A stretch of DNA of 24,000 bases. It comes from Clostridia bacterium. GTDB taxonomy: Bacteria; Bacillota; Clostridia; UBA1381. The notes under the pieces are model-generated. The model was not told the DNA's origin and searched no databases. It saw only the letters and a program-made list of their open reading frames with translations. Positions 1,587 through 18,372 of the stretch are shown here, piece by piece. Positions within the stretch are counted from its first letter, which is position 1. Each line of letters opens with the position of its first letter. The DNA lies in NCBI GenBank assembly GCA_900756545.1, contig CAAEKO010000034.1, forward strand, positions 48,662 to 72,661. Reading direction: 5' to 3'. Made by a program: the position numbers and the translations under genes.

Positions 1587-1621
1587 CCTCTTGCAGTAGG
1601 AAAATTGCAAGAGGTTTTTTT
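1587..1621 (+). terminator. rho-independent terminator downstream of the RES gene
   Basis: Perfect 9-bp stem cctcttgca (1587-1595) / tgcaagagg (1606-1614), followed by a T7 run. Confidence 0.7.
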
Positions 1622-1627
1622 GTGTAT

Positions 1628-1654
1628 TCAATTATCACTCAATTTATACTCAAT
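1628..1654 (+). repeat. array of three TCAAT motifs phased at exactly 11 bp (copy 1 of 3 such arrays in the window)
   Basis: TCAAT starts at 1628, 1639 and 1650 (tTCAATtatcacTCAATttatacTCAATgg). The same TCAAT-N6-TCAAT-N6-TCAATG layout occurs at 7163-7189 and 16254-16280. Confidence 0.6.
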
Positions 1655-1708
1655 GGAAATAACCGATTCATCTGTTATAGTTATAATACAAGTTTGCAAA
1701 CTTATTCA

Positions 1709-1735
1709 GTCCGTAAACTAAATATTTTCGGACAA
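1709..1735. repeat. left copy of a 27-bp perfect inverted repeat flanking the integrase gene
   Basis: gtccgtaaactaaatattttcggacaa at 1709-1735 is the exact reverse complement of 3030-3056. Each copy also contains an internal gtccg...cggac palindrome. Confidence 0.9.
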
Positions 1736-1805
1736 TGTAAAATTCGGCATTATTACTGGATTTTACGGCTGTTTATATTTAATGACAGCATAATATGTTA
1801 AAATA

Positions 1806-1834
1806 ATTATAGCACATAAACTGCGGAAAATCAA
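1806..1834 (-). promoter_or_regulatory. near-consensus sigma-A type promoter on the minus strand, firing toward the left inverted repeat with no gene downstream
   Basis: On the minus strand: TTGATT (1834-1829), a 17-nt spacer, then TGcTATAAT (extended -10; the TATAAT is at 1811-1806). The only downstream minus-strand ORF is a 12-codon one without an SD. Confidence 0.6.
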
Positions 1835-1922
1835 GCATTTAGGGGATTTTCTCCCTTTTGCACAAGAAATATTTTATTTTATTCTCCGTCAGTATTGTAG
1901 TCAGATGAAAGGAAGTGTTATC

Positions 1923-2972
1923 ATGGGTCGCAGAGGCGAAAATATCTATAAACGCAAAGACGGTCGGTATGAGGGCAGATACATAAAATATTATGATATG
2001 TCCGGAAAGGCTGTTTACGGATATATTTATTCCAAAAGCTATACAGAAATCAAGGAAAAAGTCGCAAAATGTAAAACAGAAAGACATTCAGCATATAAAG
2101 GCTCAAACACCTTGCTTTGCGATTGGCTTGAAATATGGTTGATGTCGCAAGGGGTATTAAAACCTACAACTCAAAGAGTTTATAAAAGCCATATTAAAAA
2201 CCATATCAATCCGCAAATTGGTAATATTCCGCTAAAAAAGCTAAATACCGAAATTTTGCAGAATTTTATAAACAGTTTGGAGTTGTCAGCTTCAACGATA
2301 AAAACAGTATTCAGTACATTAAAATCTGCACTATCAGAAGCAGAGGACAAGGGATTTATAACATGTATGGAGTAAGGTTAAATTACCCAAAAAGGATATA
2401 TCAATAGTTCGAGTATTATCGACAGCAGAACAGCAACGGCTTGAAAAGGCATTAACAGACATGCAGATATAGGTATTTTAATTTGTTTGTATACAGGACT
2501 TCGTATTGGTGAATTATGTGCATTAAAATGGAATGATATTAACTTTGAATTATCTACATTAACCGTCAACGGAACACAAGCCCGAACAGAAAATGGTGTT
2601 GAAATTATATCTCCAAAGAGCAAGACATCAAAAAGAGAAATTCCTATACCGCCGTTTCTTCTTGATAAAATCAAGTCACTACCACGAAAAGGTGAGTTTG
2701 TCATTTCAAAGTACGGAAAGCCTTTTGATGTCCGCACTTACAGGCGGCATTTCAAAAAAGTATTGAAAAAAGCAAATTTGCCGGATATAAAATTCCATTC
2801 TCTGCGGCATACATTTTCAACCCGTGCTTTGGAGGTGGGTATGGATTATAAAACCTTATCGGAAATACTCGGTCATTCGTCTGTAGCAATTACCCTTGAT
2901 TTATATGCACATTCTCTCAAAGAGCATAAGAAAAAGCAGATGTGCAAGCTCGGTGAAATTTTTAATTCGTAG
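1923..2972 (+). pseudogene. int: tyrosine recombinase/integrase (Tn916-Int-like, with an N-terminal arm-binding domain) disrupted by two compensating frameshifts
   Basis: - N-terminal part: 'GENIYKRKDGRYEGRY...' followed by a core-binding segment (frame 0), ending at TAA 2373-2375.
- Middle part: 'HVWSKVKLPKKDISIVRVLSTAEQQRLEKALTD' reads only in frame +1 (2362-2469).
- C-terminal catalytic domain: 'ADIGILICLYTGLRIGELCALKWNDI ... HSLRHTFSTRALE ... LGHSSVAITLDLYAH' returns to frame 0.
- The likely start is the ATG at 1923, preceded by an AAAGGAAG SD. Confidence 0.85.
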
Positions 2973-2991
2973 TCAAAATTTGTAGTCAAAA

Positions 2992-3031
2992 AAGCGTAAA
3001 GGCTGATAAAGTCAACGCCTTTACGCTTTTT
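2992..3031 (+). terminator. rho-independent terminator downstream of the integrase
   Basis: 12-bp perfect stem aagcgtaaaggc (2992-3003) / gcctttacgctt (3017-3028), followed by a T run. It abuts the right inverted repeat. Confidence 0.7.
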
Positions 3032-3056
3032 GTCCGAAAATATTTAGTTTACGGAC
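3030..3056. repeat. right copy of the 27-bp perfect inverted repeat
   Basis: ttgtccgaaaatatttagtttacggac is the exact reverse complement of 1709-1735. It lies 168 bp upstream of the surface-protein start codon. Confidence 0.9.
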
Positions 3057-3224
3057 AAATGGTAAATATATGTTTTCGTTATTACTACCTTATATGGCTA
3101 CTATCAACTTTTTTACAAATAATATACAAAAATTCAGAGAAAGGAATATAAAAATGTTTGACACTTCATAAAAGACTAATAAAGATTATAATGATAAAAA
3201 TTACTAATAGAAGGAGAAATAAAT

Positions 3225-6200
3225 ATGAAAAAACTAATAAGCTTATTTTTAACTTTATGTATTACAATAACTATGTTTTCGACTTTTGTTCTGACAGCTT
3301 ATGCAGAAAATGGTACTTGCGGGGATAATGCATTTTGGAAAATAGAAAACGGTGTTTTGACAATATCCGGAAGCGGAAAGGTTGAAGGTGTTCAATTTAA
3401 TGGGAAAGACTTCCACACTGTCATATTTGATGATGGAATTACCAGTATTAATCGGGAAATTTTTAGCGGTTGTTATCAGCTTTCTAAGGTTACATTACCA
3501 AAAAATTTGGTTTATATTCCTTATAAAGCCTTTTACAATTGCTATTCATTAAGAGAAATAGTGATTCCCGAAAAGGTATCACAAATTGCAGCGTTGGCAT
3601 TTGCAGAAACATCTTTAGATAGCATCACAATACCGAAAAGCATGTTGCTTATAGGTCAGCAAGCATTTGCTGTTGCGACAGGCTGGACTATTGATGGCGT
3701 TGAATATACAGGAATTAAAGATATATATTATAATGGTACACAGCAACAGTGGAACAATATTAAAATCATTTCTGGGAAAGAAGATATCTATGGATATCAG
3801 ACCGATAACAGCGAATTAAATAAAGCGACAATACATTATAATAATGATATTTCTTACTCGGGGAAATGTGGCGACAATGCAACATGGAAAATAGAAAATA
3901 ACACATTGTATATTTCAGGAACTGGTGAGATGAATGCTTACTGTAACCTCGAAAAGGGATGGACATATCCTGAGTGGTTGGCATATGATTATGATACAAT
4001 CCAAGTAAATGAAGGTATAACTAAAATAGGAATGTGTGCATTTGATGAAACAATTGTTCCAATGGGCTTAACATTCGAATGGGGTTCTCTTACTGAAGAA
4101 CAAATTGAAGAAAACCAGCTATATCAATTTGATAACGGTAACTTTTATTTTAACAGAGACCATGTGAAAAAAGTTATTTTACCTAAATCTCTTTCAACTA
4201 TAAGTTCAGAAGCATTTTGGAAATGTAACAAATTGACTGATGTATACTACGCAGGCACAGAAACGGAGTGGAACAACATTGAAATCAGCACCAATAACGA
4301 ATCACTGTTAAATGCAGAAATTCATTACAGCACTCAGAATGGCAATAAGAATTTTACGGGAATTACTTTTGAAGATAAGTTTTTCGAATATGACGGTTCA
4401 GAAAAGACATTATTAATTTCCGGCACATTGCCCGGCGATGCATCGGTAAGATATATCAACAACAAGGCTATCCAAGGCGGCGAATATACTGCTACTGCTA
4501 TCATAACTGCCGATGGATATAACACACTCACATTGACAGCAACGATGACGATAGGATTTAGAGTAAATAATGTGATTTTACCGCTTGAAGGATATGAAAT
4601 AGGAAAGCCATGGGATAATTGTTGGACTTTTGCACAAAATGTATATCAAGAAATTTGGGGATCGGCCAAGGGCGAAGACCTACTTCGCAGTCTTGATACA
4701 GAAGATAAAAAAATAACAGAAAAGAATGTTAGAAATTTTATATTGTCTTCTGAACTCGGAGCAAATATCCGATTGGAAGATGGTGAAGATATAAATATCC
4801 ATTCGTTAATTTTAGTTCAGAAAGATAATGATGGATTTACGGTATATCATGGAAACTATAATGAAGCAATTTATTTTACTCGTTATACTTATTCTGAGTT
4901 TGCAGAACATTATGCAGACTATAAATATTTTGCATACATCAATTTCCCGAATGCACCAGAATACAGTAAAGCACCTCAAAGCATTACATTGGAAAACATT
5001 CCATCAAAAACATATGGTGACGCTCCGTTTGCATTGACAGTAACACCTGATGCTACTGCAAATCTGACAAACTTTACATATGACTCAAGCGATAAAAATG
5101 TTGCTACAGTAGATGAAAGTGGCAATGTAACAATCGTTGGCGCCGGTGAAACAATTATTAGCGTTACAGAATCTGGTAATGAAGAATACGCAAAGACAAC
5201 AGTCACAAAGAAATTGACTGTTAATAAAAAAGCATTGGAAATTAAGGTTGACGATGTTACAATCACTTATGGTGATGAAATAGATACAAATATTACTTAT
5301 ACAGGCTTTATTGATGGTGAAGATGAAACTGTATTGACAAAGGCTGTTGAAGTTGGCGGATATTCTGCAAAGCCAAATGTCGGTGAGTATGACATCATTT
5401 TAAGCGGAGCAGAAGCAGCTAACTATGAAATCAGTTATGTAAAAGCGAAATTAACTGTAAATAAGAAAGATGTGACTGTTACACAGTTAAAAGTATTTGA
5501 TAAAGCTGCGGACACAACAACCGATGCTACAATAAACACATCAAGCTTGGTAATTGATGGTATGGTTTTAGGTGATGATATTACTATTGACTTCACAAAT
5601 GCGGTTGCTACATTTGAAACAGCAGAAGTGGGTAATGATATTGTTGTCACTATTACTGCTCTGAAACTCGTTGGAACTCATGCAGAAAATTATAATTTGA
5701 CAAATACTGAAATTGAAACTACCGCATCAATTAAAGAAACAATTACTGCTTCCGATATTGCGGCACAGATAACTGCACTTTCTGTCGTTAAAGATTCTAC
5801 TGAAATTATATTACCTAATGTCCCTGCCGGATACAAAATTACACTAAAAGCTTCCGATAATGAAGATGTAGTAAAAACTGATGGAAGTGTTGCTCCTGTT
5901 GAAAATGATACACAGGTTGGGTTGACATTTACTGTAACAAATGAAGCCGATGAAACTGATGTTGCGGATACCGCTGTAATTAATGTCATAATTCCTGCTG
6001 CAACAAAGATTAACATTGCTGTAACAGCCGAAGCAAATGGTACCGTTACAGGAAGTGGTGAATATCTTAAAAACTCTAATGTAACTGTTGCTGCTACCCC
6101 TAATAGCGGTTATAAGTTCAGCGGTTGGTATAACGGAGAAACTTCTGTATCTACAAATGCATCTTACACATTCAAAGCAGAAAGAGACATTGCTCTCGTA

Positions 6201-7064
6201 GCTAAATTTGCTAAAACGACTTCATCTGGCGGCAGTGGTTCTTCCTCATATGTTGTAAAATTTGAAACAAATGGTGGAGGTAAAGTTGCAAGTCAGAGTT
6301 TAAAGAGAAATGCAGTAGTAAAAAAGCCTGCTACTCCAACTAAAGAAGGTTATACTTTTGAAGGTTGGTACACAGATAAAGAATTAACAACCGAATATGA
6401 TTTTTCCACTGAAGTCACAAAAGGATTTACACTTTACGCTAAGTGGACAGAATTAAAAACAGATGTTGAAAAGCCCGGTGATACAGAGAAGCCTGATGCA
6501 AGCAGTTCACTTCCGTTTGAAGATGTTAAATCCAACGATTGGTTCTATGGTTCTGTTAAGTATGTTTATGAAAACGGACTTATGAATGGTACGACTGACA
6601 CCACATTTGCACCGAATGACCATTTAACTCGTGCAATGCTTGTTACAATTCTCTATCGTGCGGCGGGTGAGCCAGAAGTAAATAATAGTGTTCCTTTTGA
6701 GGATGTAAATGCTGACAGCTATTATACAAAGGCTATTATCTGGGCACAGCAGAACGGCATTGTTTCGGGTGTATCCGAAAATGAATTTGCGCCTGATGAA
6801 AATATCACAAGGGAACAGATTGCAACTATTATGTACAGATACGCACAGTACAAGGGTTATGATGTCAGCGTAGGAGAAAACACAAATATCCTCTCTTATG
6901 ACGATTTTGACAGCGTTTCCGAATACGCAATATCAGCTATGCAGTATGCAGTCGGAAACGGTTTAATTAAGGGCAAATCCGAAAGTACATTAAATCCGCA
7001 GGACAATGCTACAAGAGCAGAAATAGCTACAATACTTCAAAGATTTATTGTGGCTAACAAATAA
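3225..7064 (+). CDS. large secreted multidomain cell-surface protein (BspA-type LRR, Big/MBG-type repeats, InlB-B/Listeria-Bacteroides repeats, three C-terminal SLH domains)
   Basis: - AAGGAG SD, then a signal peptide 'MKKLISLFLTLCITITMFSTFVLTAYA|EN'.
- Two 'CGDNAxWKIENxxLxISGxG' modules with LRR_5-like 'ItIPksv..Ig..AF' repeats.
- Big_2-like segment 'DSSDKNVATVDESGNVTIVGAGETIISV'.
- MBG-like segments 'ITYGDEID...GEYDIILSGAEAANYEISYVKAKLTVNKK'.
- 'GYKFSGWYNG' and 'EGYTFEGWYTDKELTTEYDF...LYAKW' repeats.
- Three SLH motifs: 'FEDVKSNDWFYGSVKY...TRAMLVTILYR', 'FEDVNADSYYTKAI...TREQIATIMYR' and 'SEYAISAMQYA...TRAEIATILQRF'. Confidence 0.9.
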   Translation: MKKLISLFLTLCITITMFSTFVLTAYAENGTCGDNAFWKIENGVLTISGSGKVEGVQFNGKDFHTVIFDDGITSINREIFSGCYQLSKVTLPKNLVYIPYKAFYNCYSLREIVIPEKVSQIAALAFAETSLDSITIPKSMLLIGQQAFAVATGWTIDGVEYTGIKDIYYNGTQQQWNNIKIISGKEDIYGYQTDNSELNKATIHYNNDISYSGKCGDNATWKIENNTLYISGTGEMNAYCNLEKGWTYPEWLAYDYDTIQVNEGITKIGMCAFDETIVPMGLTFEWGSLTEEQIEENQLYQFDNGNFYFNRDHVKKVILPKSLSTISSEAFWKCNKLTDVYYAGTETEWNNIEISTNNESLLNAEIHYSTQNGNKNFTGITFEDKFFEYDGSEKTLLISGTLPGDASVRYINNKAIQGGEYTATAIITADGYNTLTLTATMTIGFRVNNVILPLEGYEIGKPWDNCWTFAQNVYQEIWGSAKGEDLLRSLDTEDKKITEKNVRNFILSSELGANIRLEDGEDINIHSLILVQKDNDGFTVYHGNYNEAIYFTRYTYSEFAEHYADYKYFAYINFPNAPEYSKAPQSITLENIPSKTYGDAPFALTVTPDATANLTNFTYDSSDKNVATVDESGNVTIVGAGETIISVTESGNEEYAKTTVTKKLTVNKKALEIKVDDVTITYGDEIDTNITYTGFIDGEDETVLTKAVEVGGYSAKPNVGEYDIILSGAEAANYEISYVKAKLTVNKKDVTVTQLKVFDKAADTTTDATINTSSLVIDGMVLGDDITIDFTNAVATFETAEVGNDIVVTITALKLVGTHAENYNLTNTEIETTASIKETITASDIAAQITALSVVKDSTEIILPNVPAGYKITLKASDNEDVVKTDGSVAPVENDTQVGLTFTVTNEADETDVADTAVINVIIPAATKINIAVTAEANGTVTGSGEYLKNSNVTVAATPNSGYKFSGWYNGETSVSTNASYTFKAERDIALVAKFAKTTSSGGSGSSSYVVKFETNGGGKVASQSLKRNAVVKKPATPTKEGYTFEGWYTDKELTTEYDFSTEVTKGFTLYAKWTELKTDVEKPGDTEKPDASSSLPFEDVKSNDWFYGSVKYVYENGLMNGTTDTTFAPNDHLTRAMLVTILYRAAGEPEVNNSVPFEDVNADSYYTKAIIWAQQNGIVSGVSENEFAPDENITREQIATIMYRYAQYKGYDVSVGENTNILSYDDFDSVSEYAISAMQYAVGNGLIKGKSESTLNPQDNATRAEIATILQRFIVANK

Positions 7065-13889: not shown

Positions 13890-16235
13890 TTAATAGCAGT
13901 TTTTATCCATAAATTCTCGTAGTTTATCTGCCTTTGTACTTGTAAGTAATGTTTTTAATGCAGACGATTGAAATTCTGCATATTTCGCTTCAAGCAGTTC
14001 AGGCTCGTCTTTCCACACCTCTGAATATATATCCCAAGCTGTATCAATTCTGTTCTGAGCTTTGTGTACTTCTCCCATATCCATATACATCAGTCCTGCA
14101 CCCCAAAGGATATTGGCGTAATCGGTTGTATCATACAAATCCGAATCATGCAATACCTTTGCACATCTCTCAAGTGCGTTGACTGCTTTGTTGTACTCTC
14201 CCAATTCTGCTGCCAAGTGTGCATAATTAAAAACCTGTGCAACGCCGTCACGGCTGTTATCTAATCCGGCTTTTTTAAGAACGCCGTACCCAAGCTCCAT
14301 ATATTTTCTTGCTTCTGTCTTATTTCCGTTGGATAAATATACACCACCTAAATTGCTGTATATATTTGCTACAAGTAAGGGATTTCCCTTTTGCAATCCA
14401 TTACAGTATTCAGCAGCCTTCTTTTGATAATGTAACGCCTTTTTAAGATTATTGTTAAACACCTGCTCATAAGTTGCCTTATAATCAAGTAATAATGCTT
14501 GCTCGGATGTATTACATATTCCGTCTGCTGTCATTCGTTCAAGCTCGGACAGTATTGTATCCATACCGGTTTTGTATCTGTACTTTTCCATATACGGAAA
14601 TACATCTACAAGCAGTCTTATATATGCCCGTATATCGTCTTTTTCAGCATATATGATTATATTTTCCGCAACGGCAAACAACAGCTTGTGATGCGGTAAG
14701 TCAATACCGTGAAACAGGCATTGAAATCTTGTGTTATCAATAAGTGTTTTACAGTTGCTTATACTTGGTTTTGTATCATCGACAGTAACCTCTTGAATTA
14801 AGGGGTGCAGATATATCTTTCTGCAATCCGTCTTTTGGATGAAACCTAATTCGATTAAATCGTTTATGCTATTAAGGTTTTTCAATTCAAGCCATTTTGC
14901 AAACATTTTTGGATTTATACCCTCTGTAGGGATAAAAGCCATATTACGCATTATGTTCTGTGCATTATCGGACAAACAAGCTAATGTTATCAGCGTGTGT
15001 ATATGCTCATAATATGTGCCTTGTGTGTTTTTTCCGTCTTTTACAATTCCTATCCTATCATCAGTATTCAGTACGGTTTTTGTTTCCTGTAACTTTTGTA
15101 ATAATGCCTTTGCATTTAATATCCCCGAAGCTAACAACCTTGCAGAAAGTTCAACCGCCAATGTGTGACAATGTACGGCTTCTATAATCTGCTTTACAAC
15201 ATCAATATTTTTATCGTTAATTTCATAAAAATATCCCACAAGCTCTAATAAAGAATCCATATCTGCCATTTCCGAAATATCAATGAAATGGTAATTGTCA
15301 AATCTGCTTCGTGTTGTAAACAGAATACGACAACGGTATTTCATAATAACATCAAATATCGAATCTGCTGAAGCCGTTGTATTAAAGTTGTCAATGATAA
15401 TCAGAGTATCTTCCTTTAAGCTACGCAAAAAGCGGTTATGATTTTTGAAACGCACATCAGTATTATCTGTTATCATGTCATCAGCAAATTCAAAGTCGGC
15501 TATCATCTGCTTTAAATCGCCTGTATATGTGAAGAACAAAATATTTGTATAATCGTTTTTATGTACTTCTGCATATTTCTTGCCAAGCTCGCTTTTACCA
15601 ATTCCGGCAACACCCTGTAAAAAGATTTTATCTTGCTTTTTCAGCATTTCATCTATAGCTTGAAGTTCGTTATCCCTACCACAGAAATGTTTACAGGCTT
15701 TAGGAACAAAACCGTCAATAATATAATCTTTCACAATAGGTGATAAGCTGCCTAATGCAAGAAGCTCCTTTGTCTTGCTTTCCCTTTTCACAAAAGTACG
15801 CTCCATACCAAAATACAGCACTCTGCTGATAAAATCAGCTTTGTCCTGCTCGTTATTATACGGATAATCTCCACATAAATATTCTTTCTTCTCCGGCGAT
15901 ATATCAGTATCGTTCATTGTTAGGTTATATATTTCACTAACCGCCATATCCAAATCATAAAGCAAAGGAAAAACAAGATTTTCAATATCGAAAGACAGCT
16001 TTTTCTGTGCTTTGGCAGTTGAATAATACTCTATAATTCTCGGACTTATTTTAGCTGTTCCGTTCAGCCATTTGCATACAAGACCGTTATCCAATGAAAA
16101 ATCCTCAGAATACTTGCTTTGAAAGAAATTATCAAACAAGCACTCTTGCAGTAAATCCGTCTGATTTATACTTTCACTTTGGCTTATGTAGTTTGAAATA
16201 ATCTGCATTACAGATGAAAAATCACATCTTTCCAT
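13890..16235 (-). CDS. STAND-class P-loop NTPase (NB-ARC-like) with a C-terminal TPR array and an unassigned ~185-aa N-terminal domain
   Basis: - Walker A 'GVAGIGKS' (nt 15591-15614), Walker B 'TLIIIDNF', and 'RILFTTRSR' (an NB-ARC RNBS-B-like TTR).
- C-terminal TPR-like repeats ('VANIYSNLGGVYLSNGNKTEARKYMELG', 'AQVFNYAHLAAELGEYNKAVNALERC', 'ANILWGAGLMYMDMGEVHKAQNRIDTA').
- The track starts at GTG 16244, but that GTG lies inside the GAGGTG SD. ATG 16235 ('MERCDF') has correct spacing. Confidence 0.85.
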   Translation of the reverse strand: MERCDFSSVMQIISNYISQSESINQTDLLQECLFDNFFQSKYSEDFSLDNGLVCKWLNGTAKISPRIIEYYSTAKAQKKLSFDIENLVFPLLYDLDMAVSEIYNLTMNDTDISPEKKEYLCGDYPYNNEQDKADFISRVLYFGMERTFVKRESKTKELLALGSLSPIVKDYIIDGFVPKACKHFCGRDNELQAIDEMLKKQDKIFLQGVAGIGKSELGKKYAEVHKNDYTNILFFTYTGDLKQMIADFEFADDMITDNTDVRFKNHNRFLRSLKEDTLIIIDNFNTTASADSIFDVIMKYRCRILFTTRSRFDNYHFIDISEMADMDSLLELVGYFYEINDKNIDVVKQIIEAVHCHTLAVELSARLLASGILNAKALLQKLQETKTVLNTDDRIGIVKDGKNTQGTYYEHIHTLITLACLSDNAQNIMRNMAFIPTEGINPKMFAKWLELKNLNSINDLIELGFIQKTDCRKIYLHPLIQEVTVDDTKPSISNCKTLIDNTRFQCLFHGIDLPHHKLLFAVAENIIIYAEKDDIRAYIRLLVDVFPYMEKYRYKTGMDTILSELERMTADGICNTSEQALLLDYKATYEQVFNNNLKKALHYQKKAAEYCNGLQKGNPLLVANIYSNLGGVYLSNGNKTEARKYMELGYGVLKKAGLDNSRDGVAQVFNYAHLAAELGEYNKAVNALERCAKVLHDSDLYDTTDYANILWGAGLMYMDMGEVHKAQNRIDTAWDIYSEVWKDEPELLEAKYAEFQSSALKTLLTSTKADKLREFMDKNCY

Positions 16236-16253
16236 TCGTGTCACCTCACTTTG

Positions 16254-16655: not shown

Positions 16656-18372
<1,717 letters not shown>

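Follow-up and report, generated by a model that had tools for sequence, protein, structure and literature searches.

A likely frozen invertible promoter cassette with a broken recombinase gene upstream of a clostridial surface-protein gene

Promoter inversion as a source of phase variation has been studied extensively in Enterobacteria, Bacteroides and C. difficile, and much less so in the Oscillospiraceae/Ruminococcus-type Clostridia of the gut and rumen. Here we describe a segment of about 1.35 kb in a 24,000-nucleotide (nt) stretch of contig CAAEKO010000034.1 from a Clostridia bacterium assembly (the window; all positions refer to it unless a contig is named). The segment is bounded by a perfect inverted repeat, contains a tyrosine recombinase gene that is broken by two small deletions, and lies upstream of a gene for a surface protein of 1279 amino acids (aa). 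A preliminary description of the window, made from its sequence alone, had proposed that the segment is an invertible promoter switch. Having compared it with relatives from other assemblies, we consider it likely that the segment belongs to a family of self-contained invertible promoter cassettes in Clostridia (Oscillospiraceae/Ruminococcus-type assemblies), and that this copy is probably frozen in the OFF state.

The segment and its parts

The two arms of the inverted repeat (Table 1) are 27 nt long, 100% complementary and separated by 1294 nt, just as the preliminary description had placed them around the recombinase gene. Among perfect inverted repeats within 3 kb, none in the window is longer, whereas the maximum reached in 200 first-order Markov simulations of the window was only 12 to 16 nt. 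Each arm is itself partly palindromic, with two inverted 8-bp half-sites around an asymmetric 7-bp spacer, which together form a 23-bp core site with the lox-like consensus TCCG[T/A]AAA, 7-nt spacer, TTT[T/A]CGGA. The degenerate core TCCGWAAA-N7-TTTWCGGA occurs exactly twice in the 24 kb, both times at the repeats, against a chance expectation of 0.02. A layout of half-site, spacer and half-site is that of tyrosine-recombinase core sites such as lox, FRT and the core of the lambda attachment site.

This core architecture is common to all related cassettes (contigs are given below with the prefix L, and recombinase groups with the prefix P). Five spacer variants were found: CTAAATA (window type), CTGAATA (L001), CTAAATC (P0042), CTTAATA (P0055) and TTAGATA (P0100). 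The spacer thus varies among lineages, yet it is identical in both arms within every cassette, and half-site mismatches between arms are tolerated (L031, L036 and the T/A position of the window itself). Strand exchange by tyrosine recombinases requires an identical overlap region in the partner sites. Judged by these comparisons, the repeat behaves as a recombination core site. Because both repeats are intergenic and the window holds only two sites, the arrangement is not that of a shufflon or of a gene-altering inversion; as in invertons, inverted repeats bound a short segment, and these repeats are conserved in relatives. The P0100 cassettes (L043-L049) additionally carry a G9/C9 homopolymer tract that extends each repeat inward (e.g., L043 144-185 and 1330-1367), a second potentially hypermutable feature beside the recombination site. 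A third recombination site was considered at the common start of the Logan contigs L043-L046, and was rejected as an assembly artefact because of the perfect palindrome found there, TCTGAAAAAATTTATTTTTTCAGA.

The gene within the segment matches the Pfam families Phage_integrase (PF00589) and SAM-like N-terminal domain (PF14659), so the repeats enclose a linked recombinase. Only tyrosine-recombinase domains are present, which sets the protein apart from the serine invertases Hin, Gin and Cin. No NCBIfam model reaches its cut-off for the recombinase; the FimB/FimE-type invertase models NF007370 and NF007371 score 26.5 and 21.7 bits against cut-offs of 221 and 222, and the protein has 350 aa with an additional N-terminal domain, compared with about 200 aa for FimB and FimE. 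Among proteins of solved structure, those that match it best in sequence are an archaeal XerC-like protein, Tn1549 Int, XerA and lambda Int. From 54 homologues we built an AlphaFold model (mean pLDDT, the predicted local confidence score, 82.9), which has strands at residues 14-16, 22-30 and 36-43 and a helix at 46-58, followed by the core-binding and catalytic domains. Foldseek returned Tn1549 Int as its top match for this model and aligned full-length lambda Int over about 350 columns, and residues R201, H299, R302, H325 and Y335 are invariant in the 54 homologues. The N-terminal 83 residues gave no Pfam match even at E=10; in the model they form a probable arm-binding domain. The predicted structure and the homologue alignment thus agree with a lambda-Int/Tn916-type fold and its catalytic residues, and we class the recombinase as a three-domain, lambda-Int/Tn1549-Int-like (Tn916-Int-like) enzyme, not a FimB/E-like one. 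No direct-repeat attachment sites were seen, and the reaction observed in a relative (see below) is inversion.

As the preliminary description had noted, the window's copy of this gene is frameshifted. In comparison with six intact relatives, AA is missing at 2362/2363 and A at 2460/2461, so that the copy carries a 2-bp and a 1-bp deletion. Reading proceeds in frame 1 to a TAA at 2373-2375, passes to another frame and returns to frame 1 near 2462, with about 98 nt out of frame. Apart from this, the gene keeps the catalytic R, H-x-x-R, H and Y motifs. Contigs L001, L002 and L003 carry intact orthologues of 350/356 aa. Since both deletions lie in short A runs, we considered whether they are sequencing errors. 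Two open reading frame (ORF) fragments of the broken gene are catalogued from several sources, and a look-up of the 161-aa fragment gave six contigs, two of which (L050 and L051) were compared with the window. These two, ENA ERZ27262103 (10,972 nt) and Logan ERR589535 (3,062 nt), contain the broken allele at 100% identity. Because the identical allele recurs in these independent assemblies, the frameshift allele is real and the explanation by sequencing error was rejected. Both assemblies have the segment in the same orientation as the window, and the Logan contig, assembled with k=31, crosses both repeats unbroken.

Near the left repeat, and pointing toward it, lies the outward promoter that the preliminary description had recognized as near-consensus, here called P_out. 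It matches 10 of 12 consensus positions. A promoter scan of the window returned 14 promoter-like sites against 9.4 expected, so such a match says little by itself. We therefore rely on conservation: in an alignment of nine cassettes from six lineages, running from the left repeat to the start codon (alignment A1), the columns for the -35, TG and -10 elements show no variation or almost none, and the 17-nt gap and the surrounding DNA have diverged or been deleted. P_out is a credible predicted promoter because its elements are conserved across diverged relatives. At the level of sequence, the segment thus has what an inverton needs, a promoter that reads outward across one repeat and a gene that lies beyond a repeat and points away from it.

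A candidate promoter for the recombinase gene, found by consensus matching, overlaps P_out face to face within 1776-1834, and probably only one of the two is occupied by RNA polymerase at a time. In L004 (1-1186) and L030 (1-60), cassette homology begins at one and the same junction, corresponding to window position 1847/1848 just right of the P_out -35 element. The end of a transposase-like ORF, recognized by reading only, lies immediately upstream of this junction in L004, which suggests that one or more insertion sequences (IS) have inserted between P_out and the recombinase gene in L004 and L030.

Two hairpins lie at the ends of the segment. The region of the left hairpin folds at -24.5 kcal/mol (z -4.2) on the plus strand and at -17.7 kcal/mol (z -2.1) on the minus strand, and is moderately conserved in relatives. 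It is a candidate for insulating the segment from transcription that arrives from the left; on the P_out transcript it would be weak. At the other end, the intrinsic terminator after the recombinase gene folds at -22.9 kcal/mol (z -4.9), and no shuffled sequence folds equally well. As an A run precedes this hairpin and a T run follows it, the terminator probably works in both directions.

To the right of the segment, 168 nt separate the end of the right repeat (3056) from the start of the ORF of the surface protein (3225), so that both the distance and the SLH and LRR domains that had been claimed for this gene are correct. The leader and the first signal-peptide codons (3225-3268; MKK(L/I)I...) are common to the window, L031 and L003, whose surface genes are otherwise different.

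Conservation also extends to the left of the segment. Homology in the left flank starts at 1617/1618 in L001, L003 and L032 and at about 1627 in L031, directly after unrelated upstream terminators, and L052 has only the last ~27 nt of this conserved block. The block carries a perfect 14-bp palindrome, AAGTTTGCAAACTT (1692-1705), 3 nt from the left repeat, and a TGnTATAGT/TATAAT box resembling an extended -10 element (1675-1688) that points into the segment. The block may be an accessory site. Within most cassettes examined, the motif TGACGGnnAAT occurs at an equivalent fixed position, its exact hexamer being missing in L003 and L043. Seven close relatives have a second copy of TGACGG outside the right repeat, at a distance of 55-57 nt, where the window has none, and L033 has a second copy of the motif inside the segment, mirrored about the right core. 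Given the probable arm-binding domain of the recombinase, the TGACGGnnAAT motifs and the 14-bp palindrome become candidate accessory or arm sites for this N-terminal domain. We also considered TTGACGG in the right flanks as a -35 element, and rejected this because no properly spaced -10 element follows it in any relative.

Table 1. Features of the segment and its surroundings, with positions of the TGACGGnnAAT motif in related contigs
Feature	Position	Strand	Description
Conserved block outside left repeat	1618-1708		About 91 nt; kept with the cassette in unrelated contexts
Left inverted repeat	1709-1735	+	Core 1710-1732: half-site TCCGTAAA, spacer CTAAATA (1718-1724), half-site TTTTCGGA
Hairpin inside left repeat	1737-1766	+	11-bp stem on the plus strand only; its G-U pairs are mismatches on the minus strand
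Candidate recombinase promoter	1776-1810	+	Extended -10 TGTTAAAAT at 1796-1804; consensus matching only, weak
Outward promoter P_out (predicted)	1834-1806	-	-35 TTGATT (1834-1829), 17-nt gap, TGc TATAAT (1814-1806); predicted start near 1799
Conserved motif TGACGGAGAAT	1881-1891	-	CCGTCA on the plus strand; about 30 nt before the start codon of the recombinase gene; candidate operator or arm-type site
Tyrosine recombinase pseudogene	1923-2972	+	PF00589 and PF14659 matches; intact orthologues in relatives
Intrinsic terminator after recombinase gene (predicted)	2989-3031	+	15-nt arms (inverted repeat I14); overlaps right repeat by 2 nt
Right inverted repeat	3030-3056	+	Core 3033-3055, spacer TATTTAG
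Leader	3057-3224	+	Homologous to the L031 and L003 leaders up to the first codons
Presumed regulated gene	3225-7064	+	1279 aa; secreted, cell-wall-anchored; LRR_5 (BspA-type), Flg_new, MBG_2, YDG and three SLH matches
TGACGGnnAAT motif in relatives	L001 2367; L002 1434; L003 7192; L030 1327; L031 5106; L032 1633; L052 3308		Contig coordinates

Relatives of the cassette and evidence for inversion

Four close relatives with 90-97% protein identity came from a scan that covered one genome per species; they lie in metagenome-assembled genomes labelled Clostridiales, Ruminococcus, Clostridia and Oscillospiraceae. L001, L002 and L003 have an intact recombinase gene flanked by the same repeats as in the window. 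Their DNA homology to the window spans 1617/1618 to ~3059-3087, and the flanks beyond are unrelated. Look-ups added further contexts (L030, L031, L032, L052, L063 and L066), which gave ten other contexts for cassettes of the P0001-P0004 clusters at ~84-95% DNA identity. The contexts include chromosomal sites beside ribosomal-protein or housekeeping genes as well as several mobile elements.

Nine of these ten contexts extend far enough to show what follows, and in each of them the recombinase gene is co-directional with downstream genes for secreted, surface or envelope-related proteins, the domains of which include LRR, dockerin, cohesin, vWA, CuAO-N, SLH and Lgt. Depending on the context, a gene for a small membrane protein precedes those for an LRR/dockerin protein and for cohesin-like proteins, or a gene for a 523-aa protein precedes one for an LRR protein. 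Elsewhere there are genes for vWA and copper-amine-oxidase-N proteins, for a Big_2/CuAO-N protein (here the backbone is the ParM/NikA one that the window also has) or for a Glug/Big_2/cohesin/dockerin protein, or there is a cluster of small ORFs that includes Lgt. The contig of L032 ends within an uncharacterized downstream ORF. More distant lineages (58-81% identity) adjoin a gene for an SLH/Glucodextran_B protein, a gene for a dockerin protein of 1524 aa, an operon with an M23 peptidase gene, or a glycosyltransferase operon. In all four P0009 contigs that include the left flank (L036-L038 and L041), P_out faces the gene for the 1524-aa dockerin protein.

Homologues with at least 58% identity were listed in 120 clusters. 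L005-L017, which are 25-38% identical apart from one short fragment at 61%, have no flanking repeats and were set aside as ordinary integrases. Searching a plasmid collection with positions 1600-3300 (blastn), metagenome contigs with the exact repeat, and viral contigs with the degenerate repeat gave no matches.

The unit that is shared among contexts is larger than the invertible segment. In the window, L031 and L003, homology begins ~91 nt outside the left repeat and continues through the leader as far as the first codons of the downstream gene, and L001 and L002 share ~95 nt of right flank. This pattern suggests, on sequence grounds, that cargo genes are exchanged behind a constant module of switch plus leader. 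The module probably spreads by homologous recombination and mobile-element transfer, not by transposition of a repeat-bounded segment.

Inversion was observed directly in one relative, the P0042 cassette, in which the recombinase is 72% identical to the window's and the core site and promoter position are the same. This cassette occupies a single chromosomal locus with the gene order histidine kinase, cassette, GT2 and GtrC-like operon, DNA ligase. The recombinase gene is co-directional with the GT2 operon in L020-L024, L026, L027, L057, L059 and L060, and is flipped relative to both flanks in L025, L028, L029 and L056, all from different samples. The flanks are ~98-99.9% identical. When flipped and unflipped contigs are aligned (~99.7-99.97% identity), the flanks align in reverse and the interior forward, and the alignments overlap only at L020 5831-5859 and 7109-7137. 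These are the 29-nt repeats, and the breakpoints thus lie inside them. A search of metagenome contigs with the degenerate repeat returned seven loci, four of which are P0042-type cassettes (one flipped, L056, and three unflipped); the other three are lone sites in coding sequence with neither a partner nor a recombinase, and were discarded as chance matches. The homologous P0042 cassette therefore inverts in nature. Only 22 nt separate the repeat from the GT2 start codon here, which leaves no room for a promoter of its own, so that the operon can be transcribed only from inside or through the segment. Samples with this locus include SRR10692671, ERR14979698 and the source of ERZ28574467.

A second line of evidence comes from the ends of assembled contigs. 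Logan contigs L018 (1356 nt) and L019 (1352 nt), from two runs, carry an intact recombinase gene of the window's 90% cluster, and both their ends coincide exactly with the outer edges of repeats that have the window's sequence. The intact cassette, with contigs that break at the repeats, is present in SRR13390170 and SRR13390171. Contigs L048 and L049, from another lineage, are likewise bounded exactly by the repeats, and L034 ends within the right repeat. A 27-nt repeat is shorter than k=31 and cannot by itself collapse the assembly graph; contigs that run from repeat to repeat are therefore expected where both orientations occur in a sample, as the node formed by the repeat plus the first interior bases would then have two predecessors. 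The frameshift allele, in contrast, was assembled straight through both repeats while the intact-gene contigs break at them, as would fit a switch that has stopped flipping. The locked state at which the preliminary description had guessed is supported by this unbroken k=31 contig and by the single orientation of the allele in two further assemblies at 100% identity.

The proposed switch and alternative readings

Based on these observations, we propose the following mechanism. In an intact cassette, the recombinase would recombine the two inverted 23-bp cores and thereby flip the 1.3-kb segment that holds its own gene. The segment would be closed by a strong terminator at the recombinase end and by a weaker hairpin at the other, and a single conserved promoter would fire out of the segment, across the repeat that lies 5' of the recombinase gene. 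In the present orientation, P_out would point away from the surface-protein gene and the terminator would stop read-through, so that the gene would be OFF. Inversion would map each position x to 4765 - x, which would bring P_out to ~2931-2959 on the plus strand, ~70 nt from the right repeat, with a start near 2966; transcription would then pass through the right repeat into the 1279-aa LRR/SLH gene (ON). This start would lie ~90 nt from the right repeat's outer edge, and the leader to the ATG at 3225 would be ~260 nt long, compared with an equivalent leader of ~92 nt in P0042. We infer that the recombinase catalyzes the inversion and, from sequence conservation, that P_out would be active and drive the downstream gene. 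The assignment of ON and OFF is the least secure step; in the close subfamily, every other context inspected was assembled in the co-directional orientation, which is presumably OFF. With this reservation about ON and OFF, the original idea of an invertible promoter draws support from the two orientations of P0042, the contig ends, the conserved promoter and the class of the downstream genes.

Several observations weigh against this interpretation. The preliminary description had called for a comparison with related genomes in search of the flipped orientation, and we found that orientation at the P0042 locus; no flipped assembly was seen for the window allele (three assemblies inspected) or in the ten other close-relative contexts. 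In the close subfamily, the only sign of inversion is the pattern of contig ends. The same contig ends would result from several copies of a cassette if their flanks diverged exactly at the repeats, but such an origin is less likely because all sequenced copies of the subfamily share 27-91 nt to the left of the repeat. The terminator after the recombinase gene is unconvincing in L020 (z -1.2) and L033 (z -0.2), and in these lineages the co-directional orientation may not be fully OFF. Promoter activity, transcription start and terminator efficiency are all predictions. The leader contains a plausible promoter of its own (TTCATA-16-TATAAT, 3165-3192; a 10/12 match 33 nt before the ATG), from which the surface-protein gene may be expressed regardless of the switch. 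Finally, the simple model leaves the left conserved block and the right-flank TGACGG unexplained.

The -10 element of this leader promoter, TATAAT at 3187-3192, is specific to the window, and L031 and L003 have TATCAA instead. In an allele with a dead recombinase it may, speculatively, be a compensating constitutive promoter. The missing right-flank TGACGG and the new TATAAT would fit decay or compensation, and this too is speculative.

The switch might still flip in this genome if an intact paralogous recombinase elsewhere acted in trans on the preserved repeats. We consider this unlikely, although both 27-nt arms are still 100% identical despite the dead recombinase gene, and the near identity of the cores across cassettes with 72-97% identical recombinases makes cross-recognition plausible. 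Global invertases that serve several switches are established, for example, RecV of C. difficile (PMC7446863). On the other hand, the three inspected assemblies of this allele (the window, L050 and L051) all have one orientation, and the k=31 Logan contig crosses both repeats, unlike the contigs with an intact gene. In addition, the TGACGG that close relatives have 55 nt beyond the right repeat is missing here, and the 24-kb window contains no second cassette. Unless such a paralogue acts in trans, then, the switch in this copy is probably frozen OFF.

We also considered whether the segment inverts with a different output, namely, expression of the recombinase itself, transcription of the left flank, or expression by read-through in the co-directional state. 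Some features of the family would suit such an output: the left conserved block has its -10-like box pointing into the segment, P_out of L052, as now oriented, faces a cluster of L7Ae-S12-S7 ribosomal-protein genes, L036 has outward-pointing genes on either side, terminators after the recombinase gene are weak in the L020 and L033 lineages, and all close-subfamily contexts were assembled co-directional. However, the window's terminator is strong, and its left neighbor lies on the plus strand, where P_out would make only antisense RNA. The start of the P0042 operon, 22 nt beyond the repeat, depends on transcription out of the segment, and P_out is the only feature near the left repeat that is conserved across the lineages compared. 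A different output thus appears improbable.

It is hardly credible that the segment is a small mobile element with the repeats as its terminal inverted repeats and an incidental link to the surface gene: a 1.4-kb unit does occur at ~84-95% DNA identity in at least 10 unrelated contexts, and contigs do break exactly at the repeats, but homology passes beyond the repeats, 27-91 nt leftward and rightward through the leader to the first codons, no target-site duplication was evident at the repeat edges in the flanks inspected and no transposase is present, the enzyme is a tyrosine recombinase for which inverted sites give inversion and not excision, inversion at a fixed locus was seen directly, and all nine contexts that extend far enough include a co-directional secreted, surface or envelope-related gene downstream. 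The marks of an IS or transposon (homology ending at the repeats, a duplication and a transposase) are thus absent. The preliminary description had named a widespread mobile element as the finding that would speak against a switch, and the cassette is indeed widespread and horizontally shuffled; its repeats, however, are not termini and its downstream gene class is consistent.

Taking the likely invertible cassette together with its flanks and contexts, we tentatively suggest, at somewhat less than even confidence, a broader reading. These cassettes would be widespread, portable and previously undescribed phase-variation modules of Clostridia, in which an arm-binding integrase has been adapted as an invertase inside its own switch. 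The whole unit (accessory flank, switch, leader and first signal-peptide codons) would be exchanged horizontally before many surface genes, and the TGACGG-type arm sites and the left palindrome would set directionality. Elements of 1.3 kb may exceed the repeat-distance limits of the usual screens for short invertons.

The window as a whole is a mobilizable element that adjoins yebC, jag and yidC. Its genes encode ALP/ParM-like and NikA/MobC-like proteins, a relaxase, an IS with DDE_Tnp_1_6, a PBECR4 nuclease, a STAND/TPR NTPase and a split large serine recombinase. The relaxase gene (9672-10883) is followed by the IS with its DDE_Tnp_1_6 transposase (11199-12854), and L050 matches the window at 100% identity as far as 10972 and stops short of this IS. 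A PBECR4 nuclease-like gene lies beside the gene for the 784-aa STAND/TPR NTPase on the minus strand (13031-16244), and the pair may be a defense or toxin module on the mobile element. The large serine recombinase is split into 16687-17223 (Resolvase) and 17329-18372 (Recombinase, Zn-ribbon, DUF4368), and is the second disrupted recombinase on the element. Upstream of the segment, the 374-aa gene that the preliminary description had labelled RES matches this Pfam family only at a sub-threshold score of 16.8 bits against a cut-off of 23.2.

By itself the window is of modest interest, as it holds a pseudogenized and probably frozen switch on a mobilizable element, with a regulatory logic that is familiar. 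As a family, self-contained cassettes of recombinase, sites, promoter and terminator would explain how gut and rumen Clostridia vary their surface features, which would bear on adhesion, cellulosome display, phage resistance and immune evasion. The family is also a source of a compact inversion module that is built on a tyrosine recombinase, is apparently autonomous and has a defined 23-bp site. The spacer variants that occur naturally might each work independently and could serve as genetic memory or switch parts for Gram-positive anaerobes, and natural active and dead alleles are available for comparison.

Comparison with known systems

The preliminary description had likened the segment to fimS and cwpV, and the likeness holds for the logic of promoter inversion. 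In E. coli fimS (FimB/FimE), C. difficile cwpV and flgB (RecV) and the Tsr invertons of Bacteroides, a tyrosine recombinase inverts a promoter beside surface genes and so switches them ON and OFF. However, in these systems the recombinase gene is outside a 0.15-0.3-kb element, either adjacent or distant, and FimB and FimE, at ~200 aa, have no arm-binding domain. It is by element layout that we set RecV and Tsr apart.

Among the Clostridia, "inverton group 139 / invertase group 35" is linked to a tyrosine recombinase/integrase, with some orientation shifts in culture (PMC11892184). The two examples with quoted coordinates in that report are ~230-260 bp long with an invertase scored nearby, a comparison with the cassette that is by description only. 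Reviews mention invertases encoded near or inside invertible regions (PMC9881135). In type I hsdS shufflons (S. pneumoniae ivr/CreX-PsrA, Mycoplasma and Bacteroides), a tyrosine recombinase gene also lies within the invertible region (PMC7672463, PMC7096588, PMC9881135), but there coding sequences are recombined and the specificity of a protein is changed, whereas the cassette flips a promoter between intergenic repeats. A full-text literature search found no published description of the 1.3-kb cassette family, an absence that is not proof of novelty.

By its enzyme, the cassette is closest to Tn916/Tn1549 Int and lambda Int, which are the best sequence or fold matches and share the N-terminal three-stranded sheet plus helix and the 7-bp overlap. 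These integrases, however, integrate and excise between sites that are on different molecules or in direct orientation, whereas the cores of the cassette are inverted.

By its architecture, the closest system is neither fimS nor cwpV but Salmonella Hin, which has the recombinase inside the switch. The H-segment (hin, hixL/hixR and the fljBA promoter) is likewise a segment of ~1 kb between inverted sites of 26-27 bp, with the invertase gene and a single outward promoter inside, and it drives an adjacent surface-antigen gene in one orientation. Unlike the cassette enzyme, Hin is a serine recombinase that needs a Fis-bound enhancer. The family appears to be undescribed, and it joins a Hin-like layout to a lambda-Int-like tyrosine recombinase and lox-like sites in a portable module.

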